NCBI RefSeq assembly: GCF_004353825.1
Contig: NZ_SMNA01000001.1
Location: forward strand, 124,001-188,000
DNA: 64,000 nt
Source of the DNA: Occultella glacieicola
GTDB taxonomy: Bacteria > Actinomycetota > Actinomycetes > Actinomycetales > Beutenbergiaceae
Direction of reading: 5' to 3'
Made by a program: the position numbers and the translations under genes. Below, one piece after another: positions 41,227 to 64,000 of this stretch (positions within the stretch are counted from its first letter, which is position 1; each line of letters opens with the position of its first letter). The notes beneath the pieces are model-generated. The model was not told the DNA's origin. It ran no database searches and worked only from the letters and a program-made list of their open reading frames with translations.

Positions 41227-41541
41227 TCAACCGCCGATGATGACCGTGGGGCAGCCCGGGCCGGGCGCGATCGGCGTTCCGTGGGTGCTCAGATCCCCGA
41301 GCCTGGCCGCTGGGAAGTTGCCGATCATCACGGTCATCGAGCCCATCGCGATCCCGTTCGGGGGACCGACGCAGGCGATCCCGCCGGGGAGGCCGTTCGC
41401 CACTGCCGCGGGCATGTTCCCGATGAGCACCGTCGGGACGCTGGCCACCGGCGTGATCGGTCCACCCACGTGCGGCTTCGGTCCGTCGAAGAGCGGGCAC
41501 AGGGCCGAGTCTCCGGCGCGCAGGGCAGGTCCGGTCGGCAC
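41227..41541 (-). CDS. PAAR spike-tip protein
   Basis: CP..DGPKPHVGGPI, TVLIGNMPAA, TVMIGNFPAARLGD, PTVIIGG. Confidence 0.92.
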   Translation of the reverse strand: MPTGPALRAGDSALCPLFDGPKPHVGGPITPVASVPTVLIGNMPAAVANGLPGGIACVGPPNGIAMGSMTVMIGNFPAARLGDLSTHGTPIAPGPGCPTVIIGG

Positions 41542-41550
41542 CGCGCGCCC

Positions 41551-42882
41551 CTAGGGCGCCGCCGGCGGCGCCGGTACGGCGTTCGTGCCGCCGAGCAGCA
41601 CGGCCGTGTCGCAGGCGGCCGGAGGCGTCTCCACCCCGGGCGGCGCGCCCACCTGGCGGCAGTCGACCTCCACGACCAGCGACTCGCCGTCAGGCACCAC
41701 GAGCGGTGACTGGAAGTGGAAGTCGACTGTCCGGAAGTTCTCGAGGGCGAGGTCGAACACGACGTCCTCCCCGTGCCGGACCACGACCCGGCCGAAGTCG
41801 CCCTGGGGGTTCGAGAACACCCAGTCGGTCACCCGGAGGGTGGTGTCGGCGGGGACGGTGTGCGAGGCGGAGGTCGTGCTGCCGCCCTGACCGTCGGCGA
41901 CCTCCAGCCGGATGCTCGCCGGCGTCACGATCTCCGAGCCGCCGATCACCGACGCCACCGCATCCTCGACCTCGACCACACGCTCCTCGGCCGCGGCGGC
42001 GGAGTTGCCCGCGGTCTCGGCGGCGGATTGCGCACCCTGGGCAGCCTGTTGGGCCTGTTCCGCGGCCTGCTGGGCCTGCTCGGCCGCCTCGACGGCCTCC
42101 TGGCGTTCCTCCGCCACGGCGGCCTGGGCGGCCGACTCGATCGTGGGTTGCAGCACCGTGAACCAGAGCAGGGCGAGCAGGGCGAGCAGCGCCAGGAGTG
42201 CGAGCAGGGCCTTGAAGAACCACTTCGGCAGGATCGCCGTCTGCACATGCGAACCGTCCAGCGCCACCGGCGTGGTGGACTCGGTGGCAGCGGAGACCAC
42301 GAACGGGTGCGTCACGTCCGCGCCACGCCAGAACGACCTGATCGGCTTGACGTGCACCTTCGCGAAGGCGGCCTGCCCCGGATCGACGACCAGCTGCGGC
42401 GGCTGGATCCGGAAGATGAGGGCCGACTTGTCGTCGGTGCCGGCCAGGTTCACCGTCACCGGGACGTTGCCGCGGTTGTCCACGGCGACCTGGTGGGTGG
42501 CACCGCGGCGGCCGTGCGAGGATCGCGGGACGAGTTCGGCGGTCGTGTCGAGGTAGGGCAGGACCTCGACGACGCCCTCGGGAATCACCGCCTCCTCGGG
42601 ATGCTCCATTGGCACCACGCGCACACCGAAGTCGAACGAGCCGGCCGGGACCGTCCCGTCCTTCGGCGGCCGGAACGTGATCGACGCCGTCGTTGAGGTG
42701 TCCGGGTACAGACCGTCGATCTGCGCCGGCTCCACGGTCGCCCACGCGCCGGGGGTCCCGAGCACCTCGATCCGGTAGCCCTCGACGATCGTGCCGGTGT
42801 TGCGGATGCTCAGCGGCACCACGGCCTCCGAGCCCGCATCCAGCCGCAGGCTCGTGGAGTCGAGTTTCGCCAAGGTGGTCAT
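41551..42882 (-). CDS. CIS-associated single-pass membrane protein (Ig-like N-terminal domains, TM helix, coiled coil, C-terminal beta domain)
   Basis: LSIRNTGTIVEGY and VDNRGNVP beta-sandwich motifs; TM ALLALLALLALLALLWF; AEQAQQA coil. Confidence 0.72.
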   Translation of the reverse strand: MTTLAKLDSTSLRLDAGSEAVVPLSIRNTGTIVEGYRIEVLGTPGAWATVEPAQIDGLYPDTSTTASITFRPPKDGTVPAGSFDFGVRVVPMEHPEEAVIPEGVVEVLPYLDTTAELVPRSSHGRRGATHQVAVDNRGNVPVTVNLAGTDDKSALIFRIQPPQLVVDPGQAAFAKVHVKPIRSFWRGADVTHPFVVSAATESTTPVALDGSHVQTAILPKWFFKALLALLALLALLALLWFTVLQPTIESAAQAAVAEERQEAVEAAEQAQQAAEQAQQAAQGAQSAAETAGNSAAAAEERVVEVEDAVASVIGGSEIVTPASIRLEVADGQGGSTTSASHTVPADTTLRVTDWVFSNPQGDFGRVVVRHGEDVVFDLALENFRTVDFHFQSPLVVPDGESLVVEVDCRQVGAPPGVETPPAACDTAVLLGGTNAVPAPPAAP

Positions 42883-43051
42883 GGCCTCGACCGTATTCCC
42901 GCGGACACCCCGGGCGATCGCCCGCGAGGCGGGCCATCGGGGCAACGCTTCTGCCCGGTGAGTCAGCGTTGATTGCACGATCAGTGCGCTGAGCACACTG
43001 GTGCCCGAGCACCCGGTATCGGACATCGGGTGGGGGATGGGACAACTGGAC

Positions 43052-43675
43052 ATGGAACGCGTAGAGGTATGGGTGAGTGCCCGAGATCCGATCTCGGAGG
43101 CGGGCGTGGTGAGTGCGCTTCGGCCGCGGCCCGAGGTTCGGGTGCTGCGGGCCGATGAGGCGGATGACGCCCGGGTGGTCGTGGTCGTCACGGATGCGGT
43201 CGACGAGGATGCGCTCCGGATCATCCGCGTGGTGCATCGTCGAGGGCTCAGCAGGCCGGTCCTGGTGGCCGGGAGCCTGGACGGTTCGGATGTGGTCACC
43301 GCCGTGGAGGCCGGGGCAGTCGGGCTGGTACGTCGCAGTGAGGCGACGCCGGACCGGTTGATCCAGGTGATCACGGGGGCTGCCGTCGGGGAGGGTAGCG
43401 TCCCGCCGGATCTACTCGGCCGGCTGCTCGATCAGGTGGGCACGTTGCAGCGCCAGGTGCTGCGTCCCCGCGGCCTGACGTTCACCGGTCTGGCCACCCG
43501 GGAGATCGAGGTGCTGCGACTGATCGCCGACGGTCTGGACACCGCCGAGATCGCCGAGCACCTGGCCTACTCGGAGCGAACCGTGAAGAACGTGTTGCAT
43601 GACGTCACGACCCGGCTGCAGCTGCGGAACCGGTCGCACGCCGTCGCGTACGCGCTGCGCGAAGGCCTGATCTAG
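43052..43675 (+). CDS. Atypical LuxR/NarL-family response regulator (orphan)
   Basis: LATREIEVLRLIADGLDTAEIAEHLAYSERTVKN HTH; degenerate receiver; alternative start 43037. Confidence 0.9.
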   Translation: MERVEVWVSARDPISEAGVVSALRPRPEVRVLRADEADDARVVVVVTDAVDEDALRIIRVVHRRGLSRPVLVAGSLDGSDVVTAVEAGAVGLVRRSEATPDRLIQVITGAAVGEGSVPPDLLGRLLDQVGTLQRQVLRPRGLTFTGLATREIEVLRLIADGLDTAEIAEHLAYSERTVKNVLHDVTTRLQLRNRSHAVAYALREGLI

Positions 43676-43693: not shown

Positions 43694-43719
43694 GGTGGGT
43701 GCCCGATCGGGCACCCACC
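43694..43719. promoter_or_regulatory. 26-bp perfect palindrome containing TGCCC-N4-GGGCA (operator and/or terminator)
   Basis: GGTGGGTGCCCGATCGGGCACCCACC; its core recurs at 50161 and 51025. Confidence 0.65.
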
Positions 43720-43845: not shown

Positions 43846-46800
43846 ATGGCACGCATGCTGGCGGTGACCGCTGCGCTGGGGCTGCTCGCCCCGGGCGCGG
43901 TCGCAGCCGTGCCCATGCCTCCGGTCACGGCCGAGTTGCCGGCGCCCGACGCGGCCTCGACGCGGGTCGCGTTCACCGAGCGCGGCGCTGGTCTCGGCCA
44001 GGCCGCGTGGAGCGTCCTCACCCCAGGTCAACTCGTCGGACCGGACGTGGAACTGCTCGAGGGCCGGGAGCAGGATTACGAGTTGTCCGTGACCCACGTG
44101 CAGTCGCCGCCGGAGGCCGTCTCCTCGTTCATCAGCACCCGCGATTCCGACGTGGGCGACGTCTACGTGCAGGGTGCCGAGGGCCCGGCGGTCCGGATCA
44201 CGTGCGACGAGGCCCGGGTCTCGCACCCGGTCGTGTCCCCGGACGGGCTGAGCGTCGCCTACTCCACCAGTGTGGACGACGGGCCGTGGCGGATCGTGGT
44301 CGCCGACATCGACGATCCACCGTGCACTGGGGGGACCGCGCCGGCGATCTCCGAGGGCGACTGGGACGACCTTTGGCCGGCCTGGCTGCCCGGATTCGGA
44401 AGCGAGACCCTGGTGTTCTCCTCCACCCGGCACGACCCGCTGGGGGACATCTACATGATCGACCGTGGGAAGGATCTCCTGTACCGGATCACGGAGGACC
44501 CCGGCGCGGACACCCAGCCCGCAGTCGGGGAGGTCGGCAACACGGTCGCGCTTGCGTTCACGACCACCCGGTTCCGCGCCGACGGCTCCCTCGCCGTCGT
44601 GGATCTGTTCGCCACGTCGCCGGAGGAACTCGAGGAGGCCGGCGAGATCGTCAGCCCGTTCAGCGGGACCATCGACCAGAGCAGCGAGCCGACCTGGGGC
44701 GTCAACGCGAACGAGGGTGTGGATGCGACGTTGTTGTACACGGGCACCAGGTACGACCCGTACGGCGACATCTTCTCGATCGACGTCACGGAAGAGGTCG
44801 AGTCGGAGTTCGGGACCCTGGCGTTCTCATCCGCAGGTCAGGTCGCGGAGGTATTCAGCCGCACCGATCGCGAGCCGCGGGCCGCCCCGTACTCGGAATC
44901 GCATCCGGCCTGGACGGTGACCCCGGGTGACGAACAGGAGGTCGGCGAGGACACCCGGGTGATCACGGCGACGTTCGGTGCGGCACAGTCGGACATCGGC
45001 GTGGTCGGCGCAGACGGTGCCGGGCGCGAGAGGCTGCCGGCGTCGACCGTCGACGTCGACGACGGCGGACCGGCTTACTCGCCGGACGGCGCCTGGGTGG
45101 TGTTCAGTTCGACGGTCACGGCGGAGGACGGGCGGGAGGGCGCTCGCCTCATGCTGGCTGCCGCCGACGGGAGCGTCGTGACTCCTCTCAACTATGCGTG
45201 GGACCCGGGGGTACCGCCCGGCTCGGAGGGCGAGGGGAGCCCGCCTGCCATCGACATCCATCCGGCCTGGTCCCCGGACGGGACCCGGATCGCGTTCGAG
45301 CGGATCTACCAGGGTGAGAGCGACGGGCAGGAGTTCCGGACGACCGAGGTCCTGATCGCGGACTTCGTGCCGGAGCCCGCCGGTGGCGACGTCCCGGTCG
45401 CCGCCACGCTATCGGTTCCCGGATACGGCAATCCGGACTGGTCACCGGACGGCCGCTACCTCGTCACGGCGGGGAGTCTCGAGCTGGCGGCGTACTCGGA
45501 CGTGGCGATCGTCGACCTTCAGGATCCAGATCCGGAGACCGCCCTCACGGGGCTGCAGTATGTGCCGCAGGGCTGCGGATCCGACGGCTGTCTGCCGGTC
45601 GGGGTCAACGGTCGCGCGCCGGCCTGGTCCCCGGACGGACGCACCCTGGCAATCGCCAACGTGTCGGTCCTCGGCCTCTCGAGCCTCGGGACGCGGGCCA
45701 TCTCTCCCGATGGCGAGACGACGCCCATCGCGCTGTTCACCGTGGACCCCGACGACCCGACCGCTCCGAGTCTCGAAGCGACACCGCTGGTGGGCTTCGA
45801 CGACCAGGGTCTGCCGACCCCGAGCCGCGCCGAACTGTCCAATGCGACCGATCCGGCCTGGTCCCCGGACGGCTCGGAGATCTATCTGGCCGGCCAACCC
45901 GCCGGCCTCGCCGACGACTGGGGAATCTACGCGATCCGGCCCGACGGAACCGGACTGCGGGAGGTGGCCCAGGGGCCCGGCCCGGAGATCGCCCCCGACG
46001 TCCAGCCCGACGTGGACCTGTCCCTGGCCATGACGGCGAGCCCGAACGTCGTCCCGGTGGGCGGCGCGAGCACCCTCACCCTGACGGTCCGCAACGAGGG
46101 CCTGCAGAGCGTCGGCACCTATCGGGTGCTCCTCGAGGCTCCCGCGGAGCTGCAGTTCGGCGAGCCACCGGCCGGGTGCACGGTCGACGACCTGGTGCTC
46201 ACCTGTGTCCCCACCGAGCCGATCGCACCGCTCGGCGTGAGCATCCTCGAGATCGCCGTGATCGGCCGGGTCCCGGGCACGACCGCGGAGGTGAGTGCGG
46301 TGGTGCTCCCGGGCGGACCGGACCGGGACGCCGACAACAACACCGTCTCGACCACGATCACCGTCACCGGCACCAGCATCGGCACCCAGGAGGCCGACCT
46401 GGACCTGAACCTCGCCGTCACCCCGCCGACCGGGTGGGTCGGCGGCCAACCGATGATCGCCAGGATCACGGTCACCAACAACGGTCCCGAGGCGATCACG
46501 AGCGCGACGGTCACGACCGGCTTCCCGGCCACCGTCGTCCCGACCGCTCTCGCGATCACGTCGACGGCCCCGGAGGATCTCGGCCCGCCCGTCGACCTCA
46601 CGGACCCCGTCACGGTCGCCTGCCTCACCGCGGCCGGGGCGTGCCCGATCGGGCCGCTCCTCGCGGGCGACTCCGTGGTGCTCGAGGCGAGCCTGCTCCC
46701 GGTCGGGCCGGCGGGCACCGGCGAGGTCACCGCGACCGTAGCCCTGGATCCGGCCGCCGCCCGGGTGGACGTGGACCCGGGCAACGACGCGGCGACCGCC

Positions 46801-47124
46801 GTCGTGACCGTCCTGCAGCCGGAGATCCGGCTGCTCCCGTCGGTCGCCCGGCCCGGGGACGTCGTGCTCGCCTACGGTGAGGACTTCCCACCCAACCAGG
46901 CGGTCACCCTGATCTGGACCCGGGGCATCACGGTCGATCCCGGACCGTACACGGTCACCCCGGAGGGCCGGTTGGTGGTCCCGATCGTTCTCGTCAGCCG
47001 GGACCTGCTCGGGGACCGGGAGATCGCGTCGACCTCCCCGGCCGGGGCGTTCGGTGAGGTCCGCGGCCCGCTGCTCGTGGTCGCCACCTCCGTCCAGGCA
47101 CCCAACTTCCTGTTCAGGGGCTGA
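43846..47124 (+). CDS. Secreted TolB-like (PD40/WD40) beta-propeller protein with C-terminal DUF11-like Ig domains
   Basis: Signal peptide; repeated P(A/D)(W/Y)SPDG; DL.L..T, T(V/I)TNNGP and D.D..NN Ig motifs. Confidence 0.8.
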   Translation: MARMLAVTAALGLLAPGAVAAVPMPPVTAELPAPDAASTRVAFTERGAGLGQAAWSVLTPGQLVGPDVELLEGREQDYELSVTHVQSPPEAVSSFISTRDSDVGDVYVQGAEGPAVRITCDEARVSHPVVSPDGLSVAYSTSVDDGPWRIVVADIDDPPCTGGTAPAISEGDWDDLWPAWLPGFGSETLVFSSTRHDPLGDIYMIDRGKDLLYRITEDPGADTQPAVGEVGNTVALAFTTTRFRADGSLAVVDLFATSPEELEEAGEIVSPFSGTIDQSSEPTWGVNANEGVDATLLYTGTRYDPYGDIFSIDVTEEVESEFGTLAFSSAGQVAEVFSRTDREPRAAPYSESHPAWTVTPGDEQEVGEDTRVITATFGAAQSDIGVVGADGAGRERLPASTVDVDDGGPAYSPDGAWVVFSSTVTAEDGREGARLMLAAADGSVVTPLNYAWDPGVPPGSEGEGSPPAIDIHPAWSPDGTRIAFERIYQGESDGQEFRTTEVLIADFVPEPAGGDVPVAATLSVPGYGNPDWSPDGRYLVTAGSLELAAYSDVAIVDLQDPDPETALTGLQYVPQGCGSDGCLPVGVNGRAPAWSPDGRTLAIANVSVLGLSSLGTRAISPDGETTPIALFTVDPDDPTAPSLEATPLVGFDDQGLPTPSRAELSNATDPAWSPDGSEIYLAGQPAGLADDWGIYAIRPDGTGLREVAQGPGPEIAPDVQPDVDLSLAMTASPNVVPVGGASTLTLTVRNEGLQSVGTYRVLLEAPAELQFGEPPAGCTVDDLVLTCVPTEPIAPLGVSILEIAVIGRVPGTTAEVSAVVLPGGPDRDADNNTVSTTITVTGTSIGTQEADLDLNLAVTPPTGWVGGQPMIARITVTNNGPEAITSATVTTGFPATVVPTALAITSTAPEDLGPPVDLTDPVTVACLTAAGACPIGPLLAGDSVVLEASLLPVGPAGTGEVTATVALDPAAARVDVDPGNDAATAVVTVLQPEIRLLPSVARPGDVVLAYGEDFPPNQAVTLIWTRGITVDPGPYTVTPEGRLVVPIVLVSRDLLGDREIASTSPAGAFGEVRGPLLVVATSVQAPNFLFRG

Positions 47125-47128: not shown

Positions 47129-47815
47129 ATGATCACCGAGGTCGACGACGCACTCCGGACCATGGTGCGGACCGCGCTGGGTGGTGCCGAGGCCGAGGTG
47201 GTCTTCGACGCACCCACCACGGACTGGGCCGCGCGTCGGAACGCCCCGACGGTCAACCTCTACCTCTACGACCTGCGCGAGGACCTGCGCAGGCGGACCA
47301 GGGGGTTCATCGAGACGCAGACCCCGGACGGGGTGGTCCGCTCCCACCCGCCGCGGTACTTCCGGCTCTCCTACCTCGTCACCGCCTGGACCCAGCGCCC
47401 CGAGGACGAGCACCGGCTCCTGGAGGTAGTGCTCGGACACCTCGTCCAGCACGAGGTCCTGCCCGAGCACGATCTGTTCCTGCCGCCCGGAGCGGACCCG
47501 GTGGTGCAGCTCCTGGTCGGTCTGCCGCCCCCGGAGGACCGCGGCTTCGCGGACGTGTGGAGTGCGCTCGGTGGCGAGCTGAAGCCGTCAATCGACGTGG
47601 TCGTGGTGGCGCCGCTCGCCGTGCGGCCCGGGCCGGCGGCGGGGCCGCCCGTGCGGGAGCCGCTCATCCTCGACGCCAAGGACGTGGTGCCCGACGGCGG
47701 AGCGGACGTCGGGCGGACGAAGCACAGTCCGCCGCCGCGCACCGAGGCGACCGGCCCTGCCGGAGGCGCCGACCGGCCGACGTCGCCGAAGGCCCGGGCC
47801 CGGGGGCGCCGGTGA
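47129..47815 (+). CDS. Pvc16/DUF4255 tail terminator-like protein
   Basis: PTVNLYLYDLRED, LSYLVTAW, DEHRLL, WSALGGELKPS. Confidence 0.88.
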   Translation: MITEVDDALRTMVRTALGGAEAEVVFDAPTTDWAARRNAPTVNLYLYDLREDLRRRTRGFIETQTPDGVVRSHPPRYFRLSYLVTAWTQRPEDEHRLLEVVLGHLVQHEVLPEHDLFLPPGADPVVQLLVGLPPPEDRGFADVWSALGGELKPSIDVVVVAPLAVRPGPAAGPPVREPLILDAKDVVPDGGADVGRTKHSPPPRTEATGPAGGADRPTSPKARARGRR

Positions 47816-50061
47816 CGACGACGCAGGACCCCACTCGGGTCGGCTCAGCGGGCCCGGAGGACCCAGCGGCCGGTCCCGCGCACGAGCGCAGGCCGGGCGA
47901 GCGGACCGAGGAGGCGGCGAGCATCGCCCACCTGCTCGGCCGCCTCGGCGTGCTCGAGGAGCGCATCCGTGCGCTGGTCGCCGAGCGCCGTGCCCACGAC
48001 CCACAGCCCGACGACCCGTTCCGTGGGCTCTACCTCAGCGACGAGGCGATCGAGGCGATCCTCGAACGCCGCCCCGGGCCGGCGCAGCCCACGCCGGCAT
48101 CCGTGCGGCTGGCGGACTGCGAGCGCGAGGCCGACGCGGCGCAGCATGCCGGGGCGCGGCTGCGGCTGCGGGAGGTCACCGACCGGTTCGGGCTGGACCC
48201 GCTCGATGTCGACCTGCTCCTGCTCGCGCTGGCCGCCGACGTCGACCCCCGGTTCGGGCAGTTCTTCGGGTACCTCAACGACGACGTGACCCGGCGGCGC
48301 CCGACCGTCGCCGTGGCACTGACGCTGTGCGACCGCCCCCTCGGTTCCGGCGCAGCGCGGGCCCACCTGATCCACGGCCCACTGATCGCCGGTGGCCTGG
48401 TGCGCATGGACGACGCGGACCAGCCGTTCCCGGTGCGGAGCCTGCGGATCCCGGACCGGGTGGCCGCCCACCTGCTCGGCGACGACGAGCCGGACCCGGC
48501 GCTCGCCGGTGTCCTGACCCCGGCGCCGGACACCGCCTGGGGCGACATCGACCCGCTGACCCGGGCGCTCGCCGCCGGGGTCGACCTGATCCACCTGAAG
48601 GAGGCGGCCACCGGCTCGGGACGGCTGCTCGGGATCGGAGCCCTGCACGCCCTCGGCCGGGACGCCGTCGTGCTCGACCTGCACCAACTCGCCGCCGCCC
48701 TCGACCCACCGGGCCTGGTCGACCTGGCGGTCCGCGAGGCCAGGCTCGGCGGGGCGGGTGTGGTGGCCGGTCCCGTGGAGGCGCTCGCCGAGACGTCCGC
48801 GGCCCGCTCGGCCCTGACGGCCCTCACGACGACTCTGACGAAGCCGAGTGCCACCGGCCCGGCCCGGTCCGGGCGCGACGTGCCGGTCCTCCTCGTCGGC
48901 TCCGCACCCTGGGACCCGGCCTGGGCGGCCCGGGCCCCCCTCCTCGTGGACGTCCCGGCCAGCACGGATGCCGAGCGGGCCGCGCTCTGGGCACGGGCCC
49001 TGGCCGATCCGGGGCCGGAGCCCAGCCGGGCGGCACCGACGAGCCCGCCCGGTCCGGACCCGGCCTTCGACCCCGAGGAGCTGGACGTCGCCGCGGCCAC
49101 GTCGCAGTACCGACTGGACCCGGAACAGGTGGTGCGGGCCGCGCGGGCGGCCCAGGTGCAGGCCCGGCTCGACGGCGGCCGGATCGCGGCCGAGCACCTG
49201 CGCCGCGGGGCTCGCGCCGAGAACGGCACCGCCCTGGACCGGCTCGCCCGCCGGATCGAACCGGCGGTCGGCTGGCCGGATCTGGTCCTGCCGCCGGCCA
49301 CCCTCACCGGGCTCCGGGAGCTGAGCCTGCGCGCCCGACACCGCGAACGGGTCCTCGGTGACTGGCGGATGCGCCCCGGGGGCGGCCGCGGGCACGGCGT
49401 CGCCGCCCTCTTCGCCGGCGACTCCGGCACCGGCAAGACGATGTCCGCGGAGGTGGTCGCCGGGGACCTCGGACTCGAGCTGTACGTCGTGGACCTGGCC
49501 ACCGTGATGGACAAGTACATCGGTGAGACGGAGAAGAACCTCGAGCGGATCTTCGCGGGGGCCGCACGTCTGAACGCGGTGCTGCTGTTCGACGAGGCGG
49601 ACGCCGTGTTCGGGAAGCGGTCGGAGGTCAAGGACGCCCACGACCGGTACGCGAACGTCGAGAGCGCCTACCTGCTCCAACGCATCGAGAGCTTCGACGG
49701 CCTTCTCATCCTGACCACGAATCTGCGCGCGAACATCGACGAGGCGTTCACCCGCCGGCTCGACGTCCTCGTGGACTTCCCGCTACCGGACGTCGAGTAC
49801 CGGCTCGCACTCTGGGACCAGTGCCTGGGGGCCGTGGTACCCCGGGCCGACGACCTCGACCTGGTGTTCTGCGCGGAGGCGTTCGCGCTCGCGGGCGGAG
49901 CGATCCGGTCGTCGGCGGTCACCGCCGCGTACCTGGCGGCGGCCGACGGCGGTCGGTTGGGGATGGTCCATCTGGTCACCGCGGTGCAGCGTGAGTACCG
50001 CAAGATGGGCCGGTTGAGCCTGCCGTCGGAGTTCGGGCGCTACTGGGACCTGATCGGCTGA
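47812..50061 (+). CDS. AAA+ ATPase (Afp15/Pvc15-like)
   Basis: GDSGTGKT, KYIGETEKNL, LLFDEAD, DRYANVE..YLLQRIE, AFTRR. Confidence 0.92.
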   Translation: MTTTQDPTRVGSAGPEDPAAGPAHERRPGERTEEAASIAHLLGRLGVLEERIRALVAERRAHDPQPDDPFRGLYLSDEAIEAILERRPGPAQPTPASVRLADCEREADAAQHAGARLRLREVTDRFGLDPLDVDLLLLALAADVDPRFGQFFGYLNDDVTRRRPTVAVALTLCDRPLGSGAARAHLIHGPLIAGGLVRMDDADQPFPVRSLRIPDRVAAHLLGDDEPDPALAGVLTPAPDTAWGDIDPLTRALAAGVDLIHLKEAATGSGRLLGIGALHALGRDAVVLDLHQLAAALDPPGLVDLAVREARLGGAGVVAGPVEALAETSAARSALTALTTTLTKPSATGPARSGRDVPVLLVGSAPWDPAWAARAPLLVDVPASTDAERAALWARALADPGPEPSRAAPTSPPGPDPAFDPEELDVAAATSQYRLDPEQVVRAARAAQVQARLDGGRIAAEHLRRGARAENGTALDRLARRIEPAVGWPDLVLPPATLTGLRELSLRARHRERVLGDWRMRPGGGRGHGVAALFAGDSGTGKTMSAEVVAGDLGLELYVVDLATVMDKYIGETEKNLERIFAGAARLNAVLLFDEADAVFGKRSEVKDAHDRYANVESAYLLQRIESFDGLLILTTNLRANIDEAFTRRLDVLVDFPLPDVEYRLALWDQCLGAVVPRADDLDLVFCAEAFALAGGAIRSSAVTAAYLAAADGGRLGMVHLVTAVQREYRKMGRLSLPSEFGRYWDLIG

Positions 50062-50096
50062 GCGGGCGCCGTCGGCAGACTCAACCGGTCGGGCGG

Positions 50097-50176: not shown

Positions 50177-50264
50177 ACTCACGCTCGTGCGTAGCGACGC
50201 CGCCGGGTGACACGATCGCTGTTCCACCGATCCGCCGGACTCCGTCATGGAGAGGGGTGCTGTG

Positions 50265-56700: not shown

Positions 56701-57163
56701 CACGCTGAGCACTCCCGGCCACGTGGACCTCCCGGTCGCCCATGCGGTCGGCATCGAGTCGGTCGACACCGCGCCGGCTCCGACGCGCCCACGCCGGCCG
56801 CGCCTCCTCGGTGGTCATCGCGGCGGCGGCGCCCCGAACGCCGGCGGGCTCCCCCTGAACCAACCACCCGCGGCCGCCCAGCCCAGCCAGCCCGGCCCGT
56901 CCGGCCAAACCGGCCCACCCGGCACCGATGCCGCTGCGGCGAACCCGGGCTCCGCCGTCGGCCCCTCGGTCGCCCCGGCCGCCTCCGTGACGACCACGGT
57001 CGCCCGGGCCGACCCCGACCGCGCGGCGGGCGGTCTCGGCGAGCTCTCCGCGGGCGCCGTCGAGGAGCTCGCCGACCGGCTCACCGGCCCGATCATGCGG
57101 CGGCTGCGGGCCCAACTACTCGTGGACCGCGAACGTCGCGGCATCCGCACGGACCTGCGGTAG
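53774..57163 (+). CDS. 1129-aa Pro/Ala/Gly-rich CIS protein (tape-measure-like or lumen cargo)
   Basis: Lies between chaperone and second tube; N-terminal GW..LPPLQRT..F..SL.AW..PSF; C-terminal ELADRL..PIMRRLRAQLLVDRERRG. Confidence 0.7.
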   Translation: MRWPWQPAKEKTPPAPPSPSPAPARPASAAPDPEPGPAGWAFLPPLQRTIGPAELVHRPTTFQHSLSAWASPSFMGAMTHLVDASAPSGVVDGDRAGLIGAPTQRVDSAELTLLPPPPPSPRVQRAASGAAGSMTRAAADVRGLPVHHPTVLPDVPTEPAPPSADHGAGHGEFGPNADADEPGPETDEPSGYQEDGATYVPIAARPSGESGAASDGAIGAAGTPVQRTGPTVPAPLAGPASDAPLRRLGLGAPLPTADVQRQVGSPGASAGSSAPPSSAQPPSVSRVAGPAASSGPPPGVATVAGPASTSSGAPAGPTSTGASSATTVASPGTGATGAAVLGSNPGTLGPPPGVPATGPVPAGAFPAAPLPLQRAVPGGAATRGDEHAPTAGGTGGAFPEHDGSAFAGPDPASAVAEAAGAVEPAAAGEPALAIEPAVAVEPAVPIEPAVPIEPAVPIEPAGPIGAAVPIEAPTPIGPAVTVSRTAADPQTVVPIGLGPVTEPRAVDPPIVPSVDPPHAPMPLATSAGPDEAARGPAGGATAVPGPTAAPTPTPVQRTAVAPTVPEPGVPSSTVVDPTAVRSTLAPPQRTIGPAVDAGGAGSSVPPGSVGSAALGSAAPGSAAQASVVQRQAAAGGTTPELDLRRTGADRAPGSGATAPAGAGRVAERPTLAPLQRVAEQWGRTTQGAASTSARPGPGQSARPPLVQRATTTPAPDRPGSATAASRAPARAPGQAPTVGAAEVAGRVAPGPPPAGTPGPAGVAQGVAFDAASGTGAAAGTGPILGPDPDADGSGAAGSDLPASLTDTGILAQRTVAGPASAPATERGPLGPGSPSRVDLPVAVVGAATAGSHPPAGASGRSPGNVAPMVSRAHASAATRPIGPALVAPPAAGSARPIGLLGDAGRGPVATLTRSTEAIGTDLHDPEVDPWPGGGPVLAPAGTVELGAGAADGPVVARSIPGTLSTPGTRNTPGTLSTLSTPGHVDLPVAHAVGIESVDTAPAPTRPRRPRLLGGHRGGGAPNAGGLPLNQPPAAAQPSQPGPSGQTGPPGTDAAAANPGSAVGPSVAPAASVTTTVARADPDRAAGGLGELSAGAVEELADRLTGPIMRRLRAQLLVDRERRGIRTDLR
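55037..55216 (+). repeat. In-frame 18-bp degenerate tandem repeat (IEPAVP), about 10 units
   Basis: ATCGAACCCGCTGTGCCN units at 55073, 55091, 55109, 55127, 55145 with degenerate flanking copies. Confidence 0.85.
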
Positions 57164-57176: not shown

Positions 57177-57614
57177 ATGTCAGAGGTGCTCCAGGAGGTC
57201 GAGACCGGAGTCGGTGTCCGGTACGTCGTCAAGATCGACGGCGTCGACCTGGGGTCGTTCAGCTCGTGCACGGGGCTCGGGGTCGAGGTGGTCATGGAGG
57301 TGCGCGAGGAGGGCGGCAACAACACCAACGCCTGGCAGTTGCCCACCCGCCTGAAGTACCCGAACATCACTCTGACCCGCCCGCTCGGGAAGGACACGTC
57401 CAAGGTCGCCGAGTGGTTCTCCTCGGTGGCGAAGGGGTACAAGCGCCGCACCGGCACCATCGAGGCGATGACCGTCGACGGGCGGATCATCGCGACCTGG
57501 GGTCTCACCGACATCGTTCCGGTGCGGTGGTCCGGTCCCACGTTCAACTCCGACAGTCCGGCGATCCTGACCGAGTCCGTCGAGATCGCCCACCACGGCT
57601 TCCTGGCCCCCTGA
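57177..57614 (+). CDS. Second tail tube-like protein (Afp5-like)
   Basis: FSSCTGLG, EEGGNN, QLPTRLKYPNITLTR, PVRWSGP, EIAHHGF. Confidence 0.92.
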   Translation: MSEVLQEVETGVGVRYVVKIDGVDLGSFSSCTGLGVEVVMEVREEGGNNTNAWQLPTRLKYPNITLTRPLGKDTSKVAEWFSSVAKGYKRRTGTIEAMTVDGRIIATWGLTDIVPVRWSGPTFNSDSPAILTESVEIAHHGFLAP

Positions 57615-57630: not shown

Positions 57631-58425
57631 ATGCCCGCACCCGTAGCGTTCGAGGCCGCCGGAGCCGGTGGAGCCGGCTCCCCGGCCCGGCTCGAGCACG
57701 CCTACCTGCAGCTCCACGAGCCGTCCAAGGACGGGTCCCTGTCCAAGCCCGGACCGAAACTGGAGCGCGTCGACTTCCAGTTCAACCCCAAGGAGCTGAG
57801 CCTGACCAAACGGGCGGTGTGGAAGGACAGCCCGGCCACCGGCAACAAGAAGGCCGGGCCGCCGCAATACACCGGGCCGCAGCCCACCACGCTCACCCTG
57901 GAGATGTTCCTCGATGCCTCCGACACCCAGGACTCCTCGGTGGTGAAGAAGGTGGAGCGCCTGTTCACCTGCTGCGTGCCCACGGCGGCGTCGTTCGGGC
58001 AGAAGAAGGCGTCACCACCGTGGGTGCTGTTCCGGTGGGGCGGGCTGACCGGGTTCCTCGCCTATATCGAGTCGGTCTCGGCGACGTACACACTGTTCAC
58101 GTCCGCCGGTCTGCCGATCAGGGCCACCTGTACGGTGACCCTGAACGAGATCGCCGGTGAGCAGCCGGGCCAGAACCCCACCTCGGGCGGGCTCGTGCCG
58201 CGTCGCGAGCATGTGCTCCGCGCCGGGGACTCGCTCGCCGGCATCGCGTACGCCGAGTACGGGGACCCGGCCTTGTGGCGGGCGGTGGCCGACCTCAACG
58301 GAGTGGACGATCCGGTCCGACTCCGGCCCGGGCACCGGCTCCTGCTGCCCGCGGCGGACGAACTGCCGAGCGTGGCGGCCCGCCGTGGCCCGGTGGACGC
58401 GGAGGTGGCACATGCCGGCTACTGA
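57631..58425 (+). CDS. CIS tube initiator with LysM domain (Afp7-like)
   Basis: FQFNP, PPWVLFRWG, GLPIRA, GDSL..IAY.EYGDP.LWR.VA..N. Confidence 0.9.
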   Translation: MPAPVAFEAAGAGGAGSPARLEHAYLQLHEPSKDGSLSKPGPKLERVDFQFNPKELSLTKRAVWKDSPATGNKKAGPPQYTGPQPTTLTLEMFLDASDTQDSSVVKKVERLFTCCVPTAASFGQKKASPPWVLFRWGGLTGFLAYIESVSATYTLFTSAGLPIRATCTVTLNEIAGEQPGQNPTSGGLVPRREHVLRAGDSLAGIAYAEYGDPALWRAVADLNGVDDPVRLRPGHRLLLPAADELPSVAARRGPVDAEVAHAGY

Positions 58426-60247
58426 GACCTTCACCTCCAGCCTGATCGTGACCGTGGACGGGGCGGCCCTGGCGCCGACGCTTGCCGCGAACCTGGTCTC
58501 CGGGACGATCGAGGACACGATCCAGCTGCCGTCGATGTTCACGCTGCGGTTCGCCGATCCCCATGCCGAACTGATCGAGACGGCGCAACTGAAGATCGGC
58601 GCCAAGGTGGACCTGCGGGTGCAGACGAGTAGCACCGGCGGCCCGGAGGAGCTGTTCATCGGCGAGGTGACCGCGCTCGAGGCCGAGCTCGGGCCGACCG
58701 GCATGTTCGCGATCGTCCGGGGCATGGACCCCTCCCACAAGCTCCAGCACGGCACCCGGATCAAGGCCTACCTGAACAAGGGGCCCGGGGACATCGTCGG
58801 TGAGATCGCCGCCGCGCACGGCCTCGGTAAGGGGACCGTGGACGTGCAGCAACCCATCTACACCCACCTGACCCAGGACGGGATCAGCGACTGGGACTTC
58901 CTCGGCAGGCTCGGGAACCGGGTCGGGGCCCGCCCGAACGTGCGCGACGGGAAGCTCCACTTCCGCGCCGCGACCGACTCGAGCACCGCACCGGCCGCAG
59001 GAAGCCGGGCCGACCCGCTGGTCATCGAACGTGGCGTCGACCTGGAATGGGTCCGCGCCACGGTGACCGCCGCCGATCAGGTGCCCGATGTCGAGGTGCG
59101 TGGCTGGGACCCGGACGGCAAGCGCGAACTCGTCGCGACGGCGCCGGCGAAGACCGTGGTGGCGGCACCCGCCGGCCCGAGCACCCCGGCGAAGCTCGCG
59201 GCGGGGGTCGGCGCGCCCACCTACGTGGTGTCCCGGTCGTCGCTGAGCACCCAGGCCGAGTGCGACGGCGAGGCAAAGGCGCTCGCGGAGCGTCTCGCTG
59301 GGGGATTCGCCGAGGTCGAGGGCGGCGGGTACGGGAACGCAGCCCTGCGGGCCGGAGTGGCCGTGCTGCTGGCCGGGGTCGGCACCACCTTCGAGGGTGC
59401 CTACACGCTGACCCACGTGCGGCACGAGTTCTCCGATGAGGGCTTCCGCACCTCGTTCACGGCCTCCGGTGCGTCCGAACGAACCCTCTACGGCAGCACC
59501 CGCGGTGGTGAGAGCGCGCCGGTGCGCGCGGGCGTGGTCCCCGCGATCGTCACCAACCTCAAGGACACCGCTCAGGCGGGCCGGGTGAAGGTCAAGTACC
59601 CGACGTACTCCGGTGACTACGAGAGCGGCTGGGCGCGCCCGGTGCAGGTGGGCGCCGGCGGGCAGCGCGGAACGATGGTGCTGCCCGAGGTCGGCGACGA
59701 GGTCCTGGTCGCCTTCGCGGAGGGGGAGTTCGGCACCCCCTACGTTCTCGGAGGCCTCTACAACGGCAAGGACAAGCCCGACAAGGCGTTGTCCGAGCAC
59801 GTCGGCAGCGACGGCAAGGTGACGAGGCGCTCGTTCACCTCACGCACCGGGATGCTCGTGGAGTTCCTCGAGAAGCCCGGCGGGGAGTCCCTCGTGGTGA
59901 GCACGAACGGCGGCCAGCAGCGCATCACCCTGACCCAGAAGCCGGAGGCCGCCATCGAGATCGTCACCACCGGGCCCGTCACCGTCAAGTCGCAGCAGGA
60001 CGTCACGGTGGAGGCACAGCGCAACATCTCCGTGAAGAGCGTCGGCGGCGACATCGCGATGGAGGCCATGAACATCAAGCTCAAGGCCCAGGCAGGGTTC
60101 GAGGCCGGTGGGGCAACCGTGAAGGTCGCCGGGCAGGCGTCGACCGAGGTCACCGGTGCCAACGTGAAGGTGGCCGCGAACGCCGCCGCGGAACTCTCGT
60201 CCGGCGCCATGACCACCATCCGCGGCGCCCTCGTGAAGATCAACTAG
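58412..60247 (+). CDS. VgrG-like spike protein
   Basis: SDWDFL, VRGWD, GRVKVKYP, LPEVGDEVLVAF..G..PYVLGGLYNG; beta-helix tail ending VKIN. Confidence 0.93.
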   Translation: MPATETFTSSLIVTVDGAALAPTLAANLVSGTIEDTIQLPSMFTLRFADPHAELIETAQLKIGAKVDLRVQTSSTGGPEELFIGEVTALEAELGPTGMFAIVRGMDPSHKLQHGTRIKAYLNKGPGDIVGEIAAAHGLGKGTVDVQQPIYTHLTQDGISDWDFLGRLGNRVGARPNVRDGKLHFRAATDSSTAPAAGSRADPLVIERGVDLEWVRATVTAADQVPDVEVRGWDPDGKRELVATAPAKTVVAAPAGPSTPAKLAAGVGAPTYVVSRSSLSTQAECDGEAKALAERLAGGFAEVEGGGYGNAALRAGVAVLLAGVGTTFEGAYTLTHVRHEFSDEGFRTSFTASGASERTLYGSTRGGESAPVRAGVVPAIVTNLKDTAQAGRVKVKYPTYSGDYESGWARPVQVGAGGQRGTMVLPEVGDEVLVAFAEGEFGTPYVLGGLYNGKDKPDKALSEHVGSDGKVTRRSFTSRTGMLVEFLEKPGGESLVVSTNGGQQRITLTQKPEAAIEIVTTGPVTVKSQQDVTVEAQRNISVKSVGGDIAMEAMNIKLKAQAGFEAGGATVKVAGQASTEVTGANVKVAANAAAELSSGAMTTIRGALVKIN

Positions 60248-60260: not shown

Positions 60261-60671
60261 ATGGGTCAGGAGTTCATCGGGGCCGGCTGGTCCTTCCCGC
60301 TGCGGTTCGACCGTACCGGGCGGGTCGCCCTGGTCCGCGAGACCCGTGAGATCGAGGAGAGCATCCGCCTGATCCTGGCCACCTCCCCGGGGGAGCGGCC
60401 GATGCGGCCGGAGTTCGGCTGTGCCATCCACGACTACGTGTTCGCACCGGCCAACGCCGCGACCGCCGGTGACATCGCCTACGTCGTGAGGGTGGCGCTG
60501 GACCGCTGGGAGCCCCGCATCGACCTCGAGGACGTGGTGGTGCGCTTCGACGCGGCCGACGACGGCGTCCTGTTCGTCGACGTCGTCTACTCCATCCGCG
60601 GCACCAACGAGCCGCGGAACCTGGTCTTCCCGTTCTATGTGATCCCCACCCACGACGAGGCCGGAGCCTGA
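60261..60671 (+). CDS. GPW/gp25 family baseplate protein
   Basis: GWSFP, ILATSPGERPMRPEFGC, WEPRI, NLVFPFY. Confidence 0.94.
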   Translation: MGQEFIGAGWSFPLRFDRTGRVALVRETREIEESIRLILATSPGERPMRPEFGCAIHDYVFAPANAATAGDIAYVVRVALDRWEPRIDLEDVVVRFDAADDGVLFVDVVYSIRGTNEPRNLVFPFYVIPTHDEAGA

Positions 60672-60672
60672 C

Positions 60673-62622
60673 ATGCTGCCCACCCCGAACCTCGACGACC
60701 GCCGCTTCCAGGACCTCGTCGACGACGCCAAACGGATGGTGCAGCGGCACAGCCCGGAATGGACGGATCACAACGTCTCCGACCCTGGGGTGACCCTCAT
60801 CGAGACCGTCGCGTTCATGACCGACGAACTCTTCTACCGGCTCAACCGGGTGCCGGACCGGCTCTACCTGACCTTCCTCGACCTGCTCGGCATGAGCCTG
60901 CTCCCGCCGACCGCCGCCAGCGTGGACGCCACCTTCTGGCTCTCCGCGGCGCAGCCCGAGACGGTCGCGGTGCCGGAGGGCTTCGAGATCTCCACGTTGC
61001 GCACCGAGGACGACCCGGCCACGCTGTTCGCGACCGTCCGCGCGCTGGAGATACCGCCGCGGCGGCTCGCGCACGTCATGACCCAGGGGGCCGAGGGGGA
61101 GGCGCTGCTGCGCGACGAGGACCTGCTCGGCGGCGACGGGTTCGAGGTCTTCTCCGCGAAACCGGTCGAGGACGACGTGCTCCTGGTCGGTCTCGACGAG
61201 CCGGCCCCCTCGTGTGCGGTGGCGCTCCGATTCGAGTCCGAGGTGCAGGGCGTCGGCGTCGACCCGCGGAACCCCCCGCTGGTCTGGGAGGCCTGGGACG
61301 GCCGACGGTGGGTCGCCTGCGACCTGGACAGCGACGGCACCGGCGGACTGAACCGGGCCGGGGACGTGGTCCTGCACGTCCCGGAGACCCACACGGCCTC
61401 GGTCATCGGGCGGGTCCGGGCCGGCTGGCTGCGGTGCCGGGTGATCCCCGCGGACGAGGGCTTCCCGTTCTACAGCGCCTCCCCCACGATGCGGGCCGCG
61501 AGCGCGACCACGGTCGGTGGCACGGTGCCCGCGGTCCATGCCGAGACGATCAATAACGAGGTCCTCGGACTCTCCGAGGGCACGCCGGCACAGGTGTTCC
61601 CGCTCGAGCGCCGTCCGGTCGTGGCGGGCGGTCCGCCGATCGAGCTCGAGGTGGCCGACGGCGGTGGCTGGCAGCGCTGGACGGAGGTCGACTCGTTCGC
61701 CGGTGCCGGACCGGACGACCACGTCTTCTGGGTCGACCGCGCCCAGGGGGCGCTGCACCTGGGTCCCGCGGTGCGTCAGGTGGACGGGTCGCTTCGCTCC
61801 TACGGCGCGGTGCCGCCGAAGGGGGCACCGCTGCGGGTCCTGAGCTACCGCACCGGGGGCGGGCCCTCCGGCAACGTCGGGGCCCGGACGATCCGCGTCA
61901 TGCGGGCCACGGTGCCGTTCGTGGACCGGGTCGAGAACCGGCGTCCGGCGCTCGGCGGGGTGGCGCCCGAGTCGATCGCCGAGGCCCGCCTGCGCGGGCC
62001 GCTGGCCCTGCGGACCAGGGACCGCGCCGTGACCGCGGAGGACTACGAGCAACTCGCCCGGGCCGCGGCGCCCGGGATCGCGAGAGTGCGGGCGGTCCCG
62101 GCCGTCGGCGATGCCGACGCGGGGGCGGTGCGGGTGCTCGTGGTGCCGTCCGCCGTCCCGGACGACGAGGGCCAGCTCCGGTTCGAGGATCTGGTGCCCT
62201 CCTCCGATGATCTCGCCGCGGTGGCGGCCTACCTCGACGACCGGCGCCCGGTGGGGGTGCGCGTGCTCGTGGAGCCGCCGTTCTACCAGGGCGTGACCGT
62301 CGTGGCCCGGTTGAGCCCGCGGCCCCGCACGACCGCACACGTGCTCGAGCGCAACGCGATCCGGGCGCTGAACCGGTACTTCGACCCGCTCACCGGAGGG
62401 CTCGACGGCGGGGGGTGGCCGTTCGGGAGACCGGTGCAGGCCGGCGAGGTGTACGCCGTGCTGCAGCGTCTGCCCGGCACGGAACTGGTCGAGGACGTGA
62501 AGCTGTTCGCGGCCGACCCGATCACCTCGCGGCGGGGCGAGCCGGTTCAACGCATCGAACTGGACCAGCATGCCCTGGCGTTCTCCTACCGGCATCAGGT
62601 CCGGATCACGGCGGGAGGCTGA
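60673..62622 (+). CDS. Baseplate J-like protein (Afp11-like)
   Basis: PNLDDRRFQDL, WTDHNVSDPGVTL, YRTGGG..GNV, RAVTAEDYE, GWPFGR. Confidence 0.93.
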   Translation: MLPTPNLDDRRFQDLVDDAKRMVQRHSPEWTDHNVSDPGVTLIETVAFMTDELFYRLNRVPDRLYLTFLDLLGMSLLPPTAASVDATFWLSAAQPETVAVPEGFEISTLRTEDDPATLFATVRALEIPPRRLAHVMTQGAEGEALLRDEDLLGGDGFEVFSAKPVEDDVLLVGLDEPAPSCAVALRFESEVQGVGVDPRNPPLVWEAWDGRRWVACDLDSDGTGGLNRAGDVVLHVPETHTASVIGRVRAGWLRCRVIPADEGFPFYSASPTMRAASATTVGGTVPAVHAETINNEVLGLSEGTPAQVFPLERRPVVAGGPPIELEVADGGGWQRWTEVDSFAGAGPDDHVFWVDRAQGALHLGPAVRQVDGSLRSYGAVPPKGAPLRVLSYRTGGGPSGNVGARTIRVMRATVPFVDRVENRRPALGGVAPESIAEARLRGPLALRTRDRAVTAEDYEQLARAAAPGIARVRAVPAVGDADAGAVRVLVVPSAVPDDEGQLRFEDLVPSSDDLAAVAAYLDDRRPVGVRVLVEPPFYQGVTVVARLSPRPRTTAHVLERNAIRALNRYFDPLTGGLDGGGWPFGRPVQAGEVYAVLQRLPGTELVEDVKLFAADPITSRRGEPVQRIELDQHALAFSYRHQVRITAGG

Positions 62623-62623
62623 G

Positions 62624-63166
62624 ATGCGCGGCATGCTCCCCGGGATCGTCCCGGTCGTCCCGATCGCCTCCCGAATGCCAGGGGTGTACGCCGACGACGA
62701 GGCGATGCAGGCCATCACGCGGGCCCTGGACGAGGTGCTGGCGCCGACCTACACCACGCTGGACTCCCTCTGGACCTACCTCGACCCGCACCTGGCGCCG
62801 GAGGACTTCCTGGAGTGGCTCGCGGACTGGGTCGGCGTCGAGGTCGACGACGCCTGGTCCCTCGAGCGCAAGCGGGAGATCGTGGCGCAGGCCGCCCAGA
62901 TCCACCGCCTGCGCGGCACGGCGGCCGGCCTGGAACTGGCCGTTCGGCTGGTCACGGGAGCGGAGGTCACGGTGGCCGACTCCGGCGGCACCATCTGGTC
63001 GCGGACCCCGGGTGCGGACCTGCCCGGCAAGGCGCCGGCGGAGCTGACCGTGACCGTGCACGTGCCCGACCCGGACACGGTCGACCTGGCCCGGGTGGAC
63101 CGGGTGGTCAGGGACGTCAAGCCCGCGCACGTGCCGCACGTCGTCGAGATCGTGGAGGTGGCCTGA
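62624..63166 (+). CDS. Baseplate wedge / P2 gpI-like protein
   Basis: YLDP.LAPEDFLEWLADWVG, RGT..GL, KPAH. Confidence 0.9.
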   Translation: MRGMLPGIVPVVPIASRMPGVYADDEAMQAITRALDEVLAPTYTTLDSLWTYLDPHLAPEDFLEWLADWVGVEVDDAWSLERKREIVAQAAQIHRLRGTAAGLELAVRLVTGAEVTVADSGGTIWSRTPGADLPGKAPAELTVTVHVPDPDTVDLARVDRVVRDVKPAHVPHVVEIVEVA

Positions 63167-64000
63167 TGGTGATCTGTCCCGAATGTGGCACCCGCAACGA
63201 GGTCGGGGAGCAGTTCTGTGGGGGCTGCGGCACCTATCTGGAGTGGGAGGAGGCCGAGTCCGAGGAGGCAGCGGAACCGGCACCCCAACCGGAGCCCGAG
63301 CTGGAACCCGAACTTGTGCCGGACCGGGCCCTGAGCCCGGAGCCGGATCTCGCGCACCCCGGGGCGCCGGAACCGGACGGGCCCCGGCCCGCGGAGCCTG
63401 CACGTGCCCTGCCTCCGGACGCGGTGCCGGACCGGCTCCCCGAGCCCGAACGGGTCCCCGAGCCGGCGCCGGGACGGTCCGCGGAGGTGACCCGAGCGAC
63501 CACGCGACCGGCCCCACCGGCGCCCGGCCCGGCCCCGGAACCGGCGCCCGGCCCGGCGCCCGAACCAACGCCCGGCCCGGCCCCCGAACCAACGCCCGGC
63601 CCGGAAGCGCCGCGGACCACGGGACCGGCCCGTGAACCCGTCTCGGCGTCGGAACCGGGCGCGCAGCCGGACCCGGTGCCGGAACCGGCCCCGCAGCCGC
63701 CGGCGGACTCCGCGACCGAGGCTGCGCCGTCGGGCACCGAACCCGCCCGACCCCCCGGCCAACCGCACCAGAACGGCACACCCGACCGGGAGACCGTCGA
63801 GCAGTCCAAACCGGCCGCGATGATCGCACCGGCGCTGGTGGCGCCGCCCGTGCCGCGCAAGCGCCGGAGCACCAGGGACTCCGAGCGACCCGCGTCCGGC
63901 GCCACCGGAGGGCAGCGCCCGGGTGCTCCCGTGCCCGTCGCCGACCAGCCGGGCGCCCAGTCGCCGGGCACCCCGCAGGCGGTGCGGCCGGGGGCGGCCA
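63166..64000 (+). CDS. Zinc-ribbon, Pro-rich protein (possible CisA-like membrane adaptor), truncated by the window end
   Basis: Manual translation MVICPECGTRNEVGEQFCGGCGTYLEW followed by a Pro/Glu-rich linker (PAPGPAPE repeats) and QAVRPG; no stop seen before the window end. Confidence 0.75.
   Translation, partial: MVICPECGTRNEVGEQFCGGCGTYLEWEEAESEEAAEPAPQPEPELEPELVPDRALSPEPDLAHPGAPEPDGPRPAEPARALPPDAVPDRLPEPERVPEPAPGRSAEVTRATTRPAPPAPGPAPEPAPGPAPEPTPGPAPEPTPGPEAPRTTGPAREPVSASEPGAQPDPVPEPAPQPPADSATEAAPSGTEPARPPGQPHQNGTPDRETVEQSKPAAMIAPALVAPPVPRKRRSTRDSERPASGATGGQRPGAPVPVADQPGAQSPGTPQAVRPGAA

Follow-up and report, generated by a model that had tools for sequence, protein, structure and literature searches.

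An intact Streptomyces-type contractile injection system with a predicted -1 frameshift and a likely exported propeller protein in the actinomycete genus Occultella

The stretch of DNA analysed here (the window; 64 kb of the Occultella glacieicola genome) contains, directly after the ribosomal gene rplI, a contractile injection system (CIS) whose gene content, structure matches and sheath phylogeny identify it as an intact, chromosomal member of subtype IId, the Streptomyces type. It includes a CisA-type membrane adaptor, a likely cargo protein resembling Sco4256, a likely exported propeller protein and a predicted -1 frameshift in front of the gene that occupies the tape-measure slot. We consider it probable that this is a cytoplasmic system, which would load its Sco4256-type cargo and fire at the membrane of its own cell after docking on the CisA-type adaptor. 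The features are as follows, all coordinates being those of the window, with the numbering continued past its end for the flank.

40700-41146: rplI.
41165..41203 (+): 18-bp GC-rich hairpin between the convergent rplI and PAAR genes; likely terminator and left boundary.
41227..41541 (-): PAAR spike tip (Cis10-like); PF05488, E 2.5e-15.
41551..42882 (-): P0001, Sco4256-type single-pass protein, likely cargo/effector (domain architecture and proxies).
43001..43675 (+): NarL/LuxR-type regulator; PF00196; true start probably 43052, judged by homologue starts.
43846..47124 (+): P0002, likely exported PD40/DUF11 propeller protein, ending 4 nucleotides (nt) upstream of Pvc16.
47129..47815 (+): Pvc16/Cis16 cap (tail terminator); PF14065, E 9e-41.
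47812..50061 (+): winged-helix domain plus AAA+ ATPase (Afp15/Cis15-like).
50247..51017 (+): small DUF4157/eCIS_core protein (Sle2-like); PF13699.
51138..52703 (+): contractile sheath; Pfam and PDB profile matches.
52717..53163 (+): tube (Cis1a); PF06841.
53160..53615 (+): predicted tail assembly chaperone (G-like) with a C-terminal CPxC motif; phrog_508, E 0.0016, and position.
53603..53609 (+): GGGGGAA, predicted -1 slippery site.
53615..53655 (+): conserved 9-bp stem, predicted frameshift stimulator, starting 5 nt after the slippery site.
53612..53770 (+): DUF6760, predicted T-like extension in the -1 frame relative to the chaperone-like gene; PF20546.
53774..57163 (+): Ala/Pro/Gly-rich protein of 1129 amino acids (aa) with conserved ends, in the tape-measure slot.
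57177..57614 (+): tube initiator (Cis1b).
57631..58425 (+): CIS_tube/LysM hub (Cis7-like); PF19266.
58412..60247 (+): VgrG-like spike (Cis8); NF033848.
60261..60671 (+): gp25 wedge (Cis9).
60673..62622 (+): baseplate J (Cis11); 9gtp_1K, E 4e-225; TIGR02243.
62624..63166 (+): baseplate I (Cis12-like).
63166..64000 (+) in the window, gene ending at 64791: P0003, CisA-type adaptor, 541 aa.
64775-67849 (-), outside the window: MalT/SARP-like regulator closing the locus, with a MalT-like ATPase and a C-terminal winged helix-turn-helix plus BTAD module.

Pfam and NCBIfam searches matched PAAR, Pvc16_N, winged-helix plus AAA, eCIS_core (DUF4157), sheath, two gp19 tubes, CIS_tube, VgrG_rel, gp25, Baseplate_J, Tail_P2_I and the Zn-ribbon protein at the locus, all of them intact. 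Thus, the contractile-tail gene set named in an earlier note made from the letters of the window (the original prediction) was recovered in full and in the order claimed. Its LysM hub stood for the CIS_tube part, whereas the LysM part of 57631-58425 was reached only through weak PHROG matches. The locus had been called near-complete and is instead complete: its last structural-region gene ends at 64791 and is followed by the closing regulator, so that the locus extends 3.8 kb beyond the window and gives way to MATE and dnaB. The core set of Pvc16 cap, AAA+ ATPase, sheath, two tubes, hub, VgrG, gp25 and baseplate J and I is that of subtype IId, and every structural gene is single-copy in the genome.

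The assignment to the Streptomyces type was carried by the sheath and the baseplate. The sheath matched the S. coelicolor CIS structure (8bky/9gtp) with E 6e-218 over residues 1-516, and baseplate J matched 9gtp with E 4e-225. The best full-length match to a phage sheath had 34.5% identity, and the best Streptomycetaceae plasmid CIS reached 57-60%. In a quick IQ-TREE phylogeny (74 rows; 15 partial or duplicate rows dropped), the sheath of the window fell inside a 56-row clade (SH-aLRT 95) together with S. cattleya pSCATT, which is listed as IId in Supplementary Data 1 of PMC10020575; phage and Afp sheaths lay outside the clade on long branches. The check proposed earlier, sheath phylogeny, thus placed the locus with a published IId system and not with prophage tails. 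Sheath clades roughly followed host families.

The gene directly after the baseplate genes had been listed as a mere Zn-ribbon member of the tail set. On the basis of its layout, position and proxy alignments, this has to be corrected, and P0003 is best read as a CisA-type membrane adaptor. It consists of a Zn ribbon, a Pro-rich disordered linker, a second Zn ribbon, a transmembrane (TM) helix at ∼363-381 and an F5/8-type domain, with eight Lys/Arg residues before the helix and two after it. Proteins in the same slot of pSCATT and of a Streptomyces plasmid locus aligned with 28% (E 4e-15) and 31% (E 1e-18) identity, respectively. CisA itself is described as starting with a disordered cytoplasmic region, which is followed by a Cys-rich segment, a single TM helix and an outer domain that resembles carbohydrate-binding ones, and its gene lies immediately 3' of the baseplate genes (PMC12237407, PMC10020575). 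A CisA/Sco4242-type single-pass protein at this position, a mark of IId, is therefore recognised through proxy loci and the published architecture. In two Cellulomonas loci a CisA-type gene was observed at the left end, after PAAR (2231-4162 in the numbering of those loci).

A second mark of subtype IId is a cargo protein with two immunoglobulin-like (Ig) domains and a TM helix. P0001, which the original prediction took for a membrane protein of an accessory module of the host's own, has two tandem PapD-like Ig domains, a TM helix at 221-243 and a coiled coil. It ends in an unnamed beta-sandwich with two nearly invariant Cys residues that had no Pfam, PDB-sequence or Atlas match. Its alignment with a Streptomyces RICIN-domain cargo had 36% identity over 7-222 (E 2e-42), and the fold matches of its N-domain include six chains that are also on the list for domain 1 of Sco4256. 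Sco4256 is laid out as tandem Ig domains, a TM helix at about 220-245 and a variable third domain. The Sco4256-type proteins of S. coelicolor occupy the lumen of the tube, and stress-induced death requires them (PMC10066040). Layout and proxy alignment thus make P0001 a Sco4256-type protein and a likely cargo or effector. Three Kocuria loci carry a tandem pair of Sco4256-type genes whose C-terminal domains mostly differ from the one here, and these loci have no propeller.

Between the first tube and the tube initiator lies a run of a 151-aa gene, DUF6760 (52 aa) and the 1129-aa gene. Two actinophage myoviruses share this run, which in phage Abba is annotated as tail assembly chaperone, small open reading frame (ORF) and tape measure. 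The known scheme of chaperone frameshifting is that of the lambda G/GT pair. We surveyed the junction in 56 rows chosen by protein similarity alone (5 of them duplicates). In 50 of 56 rows, and in 50 of the 51 within the clade, the heptamer GGGGGAA is separated from the stop by a single codon and DUF6760 is in the -1 frame; one of these 50 comes from an error-rich assembly with an indel at the junction. The remaining clade row has GGGGGGA, and the site is missing from the five rows that belong to a second, distant CIS type. In four genes of the locus GAA makes up 12% of Glu codons and GGG 30% of Gly codons, and most synonymous positions upstream of the heptamer vary freely. GGGGGAA is the sole form of the five-two motif and recurs in annotated SEA-PHAGES frameshifts (PMC10885494). 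Downstream, a 9-bp stem had a mean z of -3.3, with 43 of 46 segments below -1. The pair thus has the position between tube and tape-measure slot, the second ORF in the -1 frame and the conserved slippery heptamer of a G/GT pair, and the predicted -1 frameshift at GGGGGAA is probably real. No description of a frameshift in a CIS was found in the literature searched, including the main texts of PMC8213781, PMC10020575 and PMC13277306, with supplements outside that scope.

Several observations weigh against this prediction. The 81-nt downstream fold of the window itself is not significant (z -1.04), compensatory change in the stem occurs at one pair only, and the 46 segments had been chosen by motif. 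The chaperone identity is weak (phrog_508, E 0.0016): the 151-aa gene gave no Pfam or PDB match and no informative Atlas cluster, and its 18-bit match is to gene 90 of phage LuckySocke, an unnamed post-tube gene. It is also conceivable, albeit somewhat unlikely, that GGGGGAA is kept for translational coupling, as a Shine-Dalgarno-like run with a hairpin opened by the terminating ribosome, and that DUF6760 is a separate 52-aa protein. The overlap of stop and start (RTGA) and the hairpin at the start region would fit such coupling, as would the second CIS type, in which the site is missing and the two genes are 10-13 nt apart; for T4-like phages, non-frameshift chaperone biogenesis has been proposed, according to the title of a paper. 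However, DUF6760 starts with CTG in two loci, and in one locus Leu is changed to Pro and the G is nevertheless kept. Pairing with 16S rRNA would require neither the invariant GAA nor the G before it, the spacing of ∼4 nt is short, and the same motif marks the actinophage chaperone genes at the corresponding position. We therefore prefer the frameshift.

The 1129-aa protein that follows had no Pfam or PHROG match. Since S. coelicolor particles are uniform (268 nm) and no tape-measure gene has been recognised in their cluster (PMC12237407), we infer that this disordered protein is a candidate length ruler; the same statement in PMC12237407, that the S. coelicolor cluster has no tape-measure gene, also counts against that role.

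The gene directly upstream of Pvc16 had been described as a TolB-like propeller. P0002 has a signal-peptide-like N-terminus, PD40 repeats, two DUF11 Ig domains and a conserved C-terminal Ig domain, and its model has two beta-propellers on three Ig-like domains (pLDDT 79, pTM 0.70). Thus, the propeller was borne out as a PD40 plus DUF11 protein, whereas membership of TolB (Tol-Pal) was rejected, with 76 bits against the TIGR02800 cut-off of 343 and only the PD40 repeats shared. A likeness to integrins was rejected as well: in Foldseek comparisons of the propeller model TM-scores were at most 0.20 with rmsd above 20 A, and domain order alone is shared. A scan with Pvc16 gave at least 592 of 599 stretches confirmed, and in 48 of the best 80 Pvc16 loci, which were used for layout counts, the propeller lies directly upstream. 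Its carriers include Cellulomonas, Cellulosimicrobium, Nocardioides, Pseudarthrobacter, Knoellia, Humibacillus and others, and also pSCATT. A class-wide search with two candidates scored per genome found it in at least 10 of 401 genomes; eight of nine non-self matches were directly before Pvc16, and the ninth was on a 2.5-kb contig. A genome scan with the propeller as the single query protein gave no match. The order of the accessory genes recurs in many actinomycete genera, among them Cellulomonas, Nocardioides and Pseudarthrobacter, and in the published pSCATT IId locus, which rules out an accessory module specific to this host.

A lenient heuristic assigned a hydrophobic N-terminus to all 35 intact propeller homologues examined (four fragmented ones were set aside), and the protein is therefore likely exported. 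The C-terminal domain of the cargo and the propeller were found together in 47 loci; 18 loci had neither, 5 the domain only and none the propeller only (counted over the 70 of 91 loci in which a cargo gene was visible, including 2 duplicate rows; the profile was trained on propeller loci). In seven Arthrobacter/Pseudarthrobacter loci without the propeller, the cargo is shortened to ∼270 aa. After tree correction the co-occurrence comes down to three independent contrasts (p 0.5), so that the idea that the propeller pairs with the outer domain of the cargo may be taken as a lead only. A CIS-linked PD40/DUF11 propeller has apparently not been described before: none was found in the same literature, with the dbeCIS and eCIStem tables outside that scope.

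The work on S. coelicolor and S. lividans suggests how such a system could act. The particle would assemble in the cytoplasm and be loaded with the single-pass cargo. Our own data add that tail assembly probably takes the route known from phages: a -1 slip at GGGGGAA would yield the short chaperone and, less often, its fusion with DUF6760, and both would accompany the long disordered protein encoded in the tape-measure slot. Under envelope stress, docking on the CisA-type adaptor would lead to firing into the membrane of the producer, and the outcome would be harm to or remodelling of the producing cell rather than attack on neighbours. The propeller-DUF11 protein is likely exported by Sec and would then act on the outer face as a sensor, receiver or guard that contacts the outer domain of the cargo or that of CisA, and the SARP-like and LuxR regulators probably act at TGCC[CG] repeats.

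Some points speak against this picture. Homology to SCO4242 and SCO4256 was judged through proxies and published architectures. The sheath tree is quick and without bootstrap, leaves out S. coelicolor and has long outgroup branches. In addition, an exported propeller on an Ig stalk is also the expected look of an outward-facing receptor binder. A more far-reaching proposal, which we regard as unlikely at present, is that IId systems including those of Streptomyces keep the full phage tail programme (G/GT frameshift and an unrecognised disordered tape measure that sets particle length), and that a large propeller sub-lineage in unicellular actinomycetes is a two-sided envelope signalling device, with the outer domain of the membrane cargo caught or gated by the exported propeller, and not a suicide machine.

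The main rival, which we consider unlikely, is a released, extracellular CIS: the unicellular host would lyse or fire outward, and the fast-evolving propeller-Ig protein would be directed at neighbours, binding their receptors or tethering to their surface. In its favour, the propeller is only 55-66% identical within the genus, where core genes mostly reach 85-95%, and its length varies from ∼1000 to 1900 aa; the propeller-on-Ig-stalk model points the same way, although with TM-scores at or below 0.20 it is an analogy only. PAAR is present, unlike in S. coelicolor, and in the interpretation of Vladimirov et al. Sco4242 might be a fibre. However, a signal peptide would part the propeller from cytoplasmic assembly, and what follows the baseplate is no fibre gene but the TM-bearing CisA-type gene. 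The scanned ORFs include no recognised lysis gene, with no family search aimed at holins, and the studied IId systems in the cited work are all cytoplasmic. A cytoplasmic system docking on CisA thus remains the preferred reading.

The prediction that phage and type VI secretion system (T6SS) genes are missing held up. Capsid, terminase and integrase had no match among the locus ORFs scanned, and the DNA beyond 64 kb, whose inspection had been proposed, has the MalT/SARP-like regulator, MATE and dnaB, which rules out a prophage continuing past the window. Terminase_6N, TerL_ATPase and the T6SS protein DotU/TssL were absent by family search from the whole 100%-complete genome, with TssM and TssJ outside the family searches; of 14 control genomes, the same two terminase and DotU/TssL searches matched 5, 3 and 1. 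It is extremely improbable that the locus is the defective tail of a prophage, or a tailocin, from a myovirus integrated after rplI: the tail gene order does parallel that of actinophage myoviruses and the slot varies in size among relatives, but Pvc16, AAA+, DUF4157, CisA-type and Sco4256-type genes are CIS features, two terminase families are missing from the genome, phage sheaths stay at 34.5% and outside the clade, and all genes are intact and in the same order across many genera.

Among the closest known systems, the S. coelicolor IId CIS (sco4242-sco4263; PMC10066040, PMC10020575, PMC12237407) shares the cap, AAA+ ATPase, sheath, two tubes, hub, VgrG, gp25 and baseplate J/I, the CisA-type gene right after the baseplate, the Sco4256-type single-pass cargo and the lack of a conventional fibre. 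It differs in having three cargo genes, with ricin instead of the unnamed C-terminal domain of the single one here, and no PAAR, which is present here and in S. venezuelae; the exported propeller-DUF11 gene is a further difference. The S. cattleya pSCATT IId locus has the same order (cargo, LuxR, propeller, Pvc16, AAA+, sheath and so on to the CisA-type gene) and the GGGGGAA junction, but it is plasmid-borne, with DUF4157 beside the cargo, a sheath 57% identical, a much shorter CisA linker and no PAAR match. Similar to S. lividans SLP with Sle1/Sle2 (PMC13277306, PMC10286715), a small DUF4157 gene lies just upstream of the sheath and a regulator is linked to the cluster; unlike it, no Sle1-type helical effector occurs between DUF4157 and sheath here (120-nt gap). 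A search for the Sle1/Sle2 pair found no coiled-coil tape-measure-like gene beside DUF4157, which has AAA+ on one side and the sheath on the other, each less than 200 nt away. Many relatives have 3-7 kb of extra DNA between AAA+/DUF4157 and sheath (the Sle1-type effector slot), and the window has none. The phage G/GT systems (PMC10885494) likewise have a tube, a ∼150-aa gene, a ∼50-aa gene in the -1 frame and a ∼1100-aa gene, with GGGGGAA just before the stop and a stem downstream; here, however, the setting is a bacterial CIS, the long gene is Pro/Ala-rich, non-helical and no classical tape measure, and the fusion is predicted only.

The closest named homologues, all from Occultella (propeller 66% and 56%, Pvc16 86%), agree with the predicted Micrococcales host, Occultella being a genus of Ruaniaceae in that order. 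In contrast to S. coelicolor, the host genus is not known to form a mycelium or spores. IId systems in Micrococcales (Cellulomonas, Sanguibacter) are already listed in Supplementary Data 4 of PMC10020575 (2023), and the occurrence of such a CIS in this order is by itself known and ordinary. A sheath is present in 19 of 61 related genomes; the close type (at least 75%) occurs in nine genomes, including the own genome, and exactly those nine carry the propeller. A second CIS type was noted in five genomes of the same family and order, with a sheath ∼45% identical, no match to Pvc16, AAA+, cargo, propeller or CisA in the flanks retrieved and no GGGGGAA. One metagenome-assembled genome labelled Brevundimonas has this actinomycete locus and groups with Cellulomonas in the tree; it is probably misbinned.

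An accessory island after rplI had been predicted, and nine other family members have no CIS match in the gap between rplI and MATE, which measures 0.6-0.9 kb in four and 3.9-15.7 kb in five of them. The other DNA in these five suggests a possible insertion hotspot. Five family members have the same cluster at other genomic positions. In all four genus genomes examined, the locus lies directly after rplI, and the rplI-dnaB distance is ∼28.5 kb in three of them, the contig of the fourth ending earlier. The G+C content is 73.0% for the locus and 71.4% for the genome. Because of the same site in all four genomes, the variable slot and this G+C content, the insertion is an old one into a variable slot; a recent horizontal island is ruled out, there being no G+C anomaly and sheath clades following host families approximately. 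On the left, a perfect 18-bp hairpin follows rplI (z -5.4, 0 of 200 shuffles), so that the rplI terminator claimed earlier stood as a strong hairpin; it has no T-run, and the terminator scan, which requires one, called none. The predicted position close to oriC agreed with dnaA at 5827-7323, ∼34 kb from the locus. On the right, dnaB carries an intein-like in-frame insertion of ∼400 codons, at one of two sites, in the remaining three genomes of the genus and in several relatives; dnaB of the genome of the window is without it.

As for regulation, the orphan regulator was confirmed as LuxR (PF00196), with no kinase gene in the locus, and is 49-53% identical to the protein in the same slot of Streptomyces loci. 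In its receiver-like domain the Asp after beta-3 is kept, and the acidic pair and the conserved Lys appear to be missing (judged by eye against the usual motif). TGCC[CG] repeats occur in the gaps 42940-43006, 43700-43772, 50073-50166 and 51026-51098. After LuxR their density is 1.9 per 90 nt against a background of 0.39, at least two copies are present in 44 of 60 loci, and the commonest spacing is 22 nt. SARP proteins bind spaced direct repeats, and the repeats are likely operator sites of the SARP-like or the LuxR regulator. A sigma-70 promoter scan gave 0 sites.

The cytoplasmic CIS has so far been explained by multicellular development in Streptomyces. An intact and conserved CIS in genera that are not known to be multicellular makes the developmental explanation testable, and culturable Cellulomonas and Pseudarthrobacter carriers exist both with and without the propeller module. 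Moreover, the predicted chaperone frameshift together with the gene behind it provides a specific hypothesis for the uniform particle length of S. coelicolor in the absence of a recognised tape measure.

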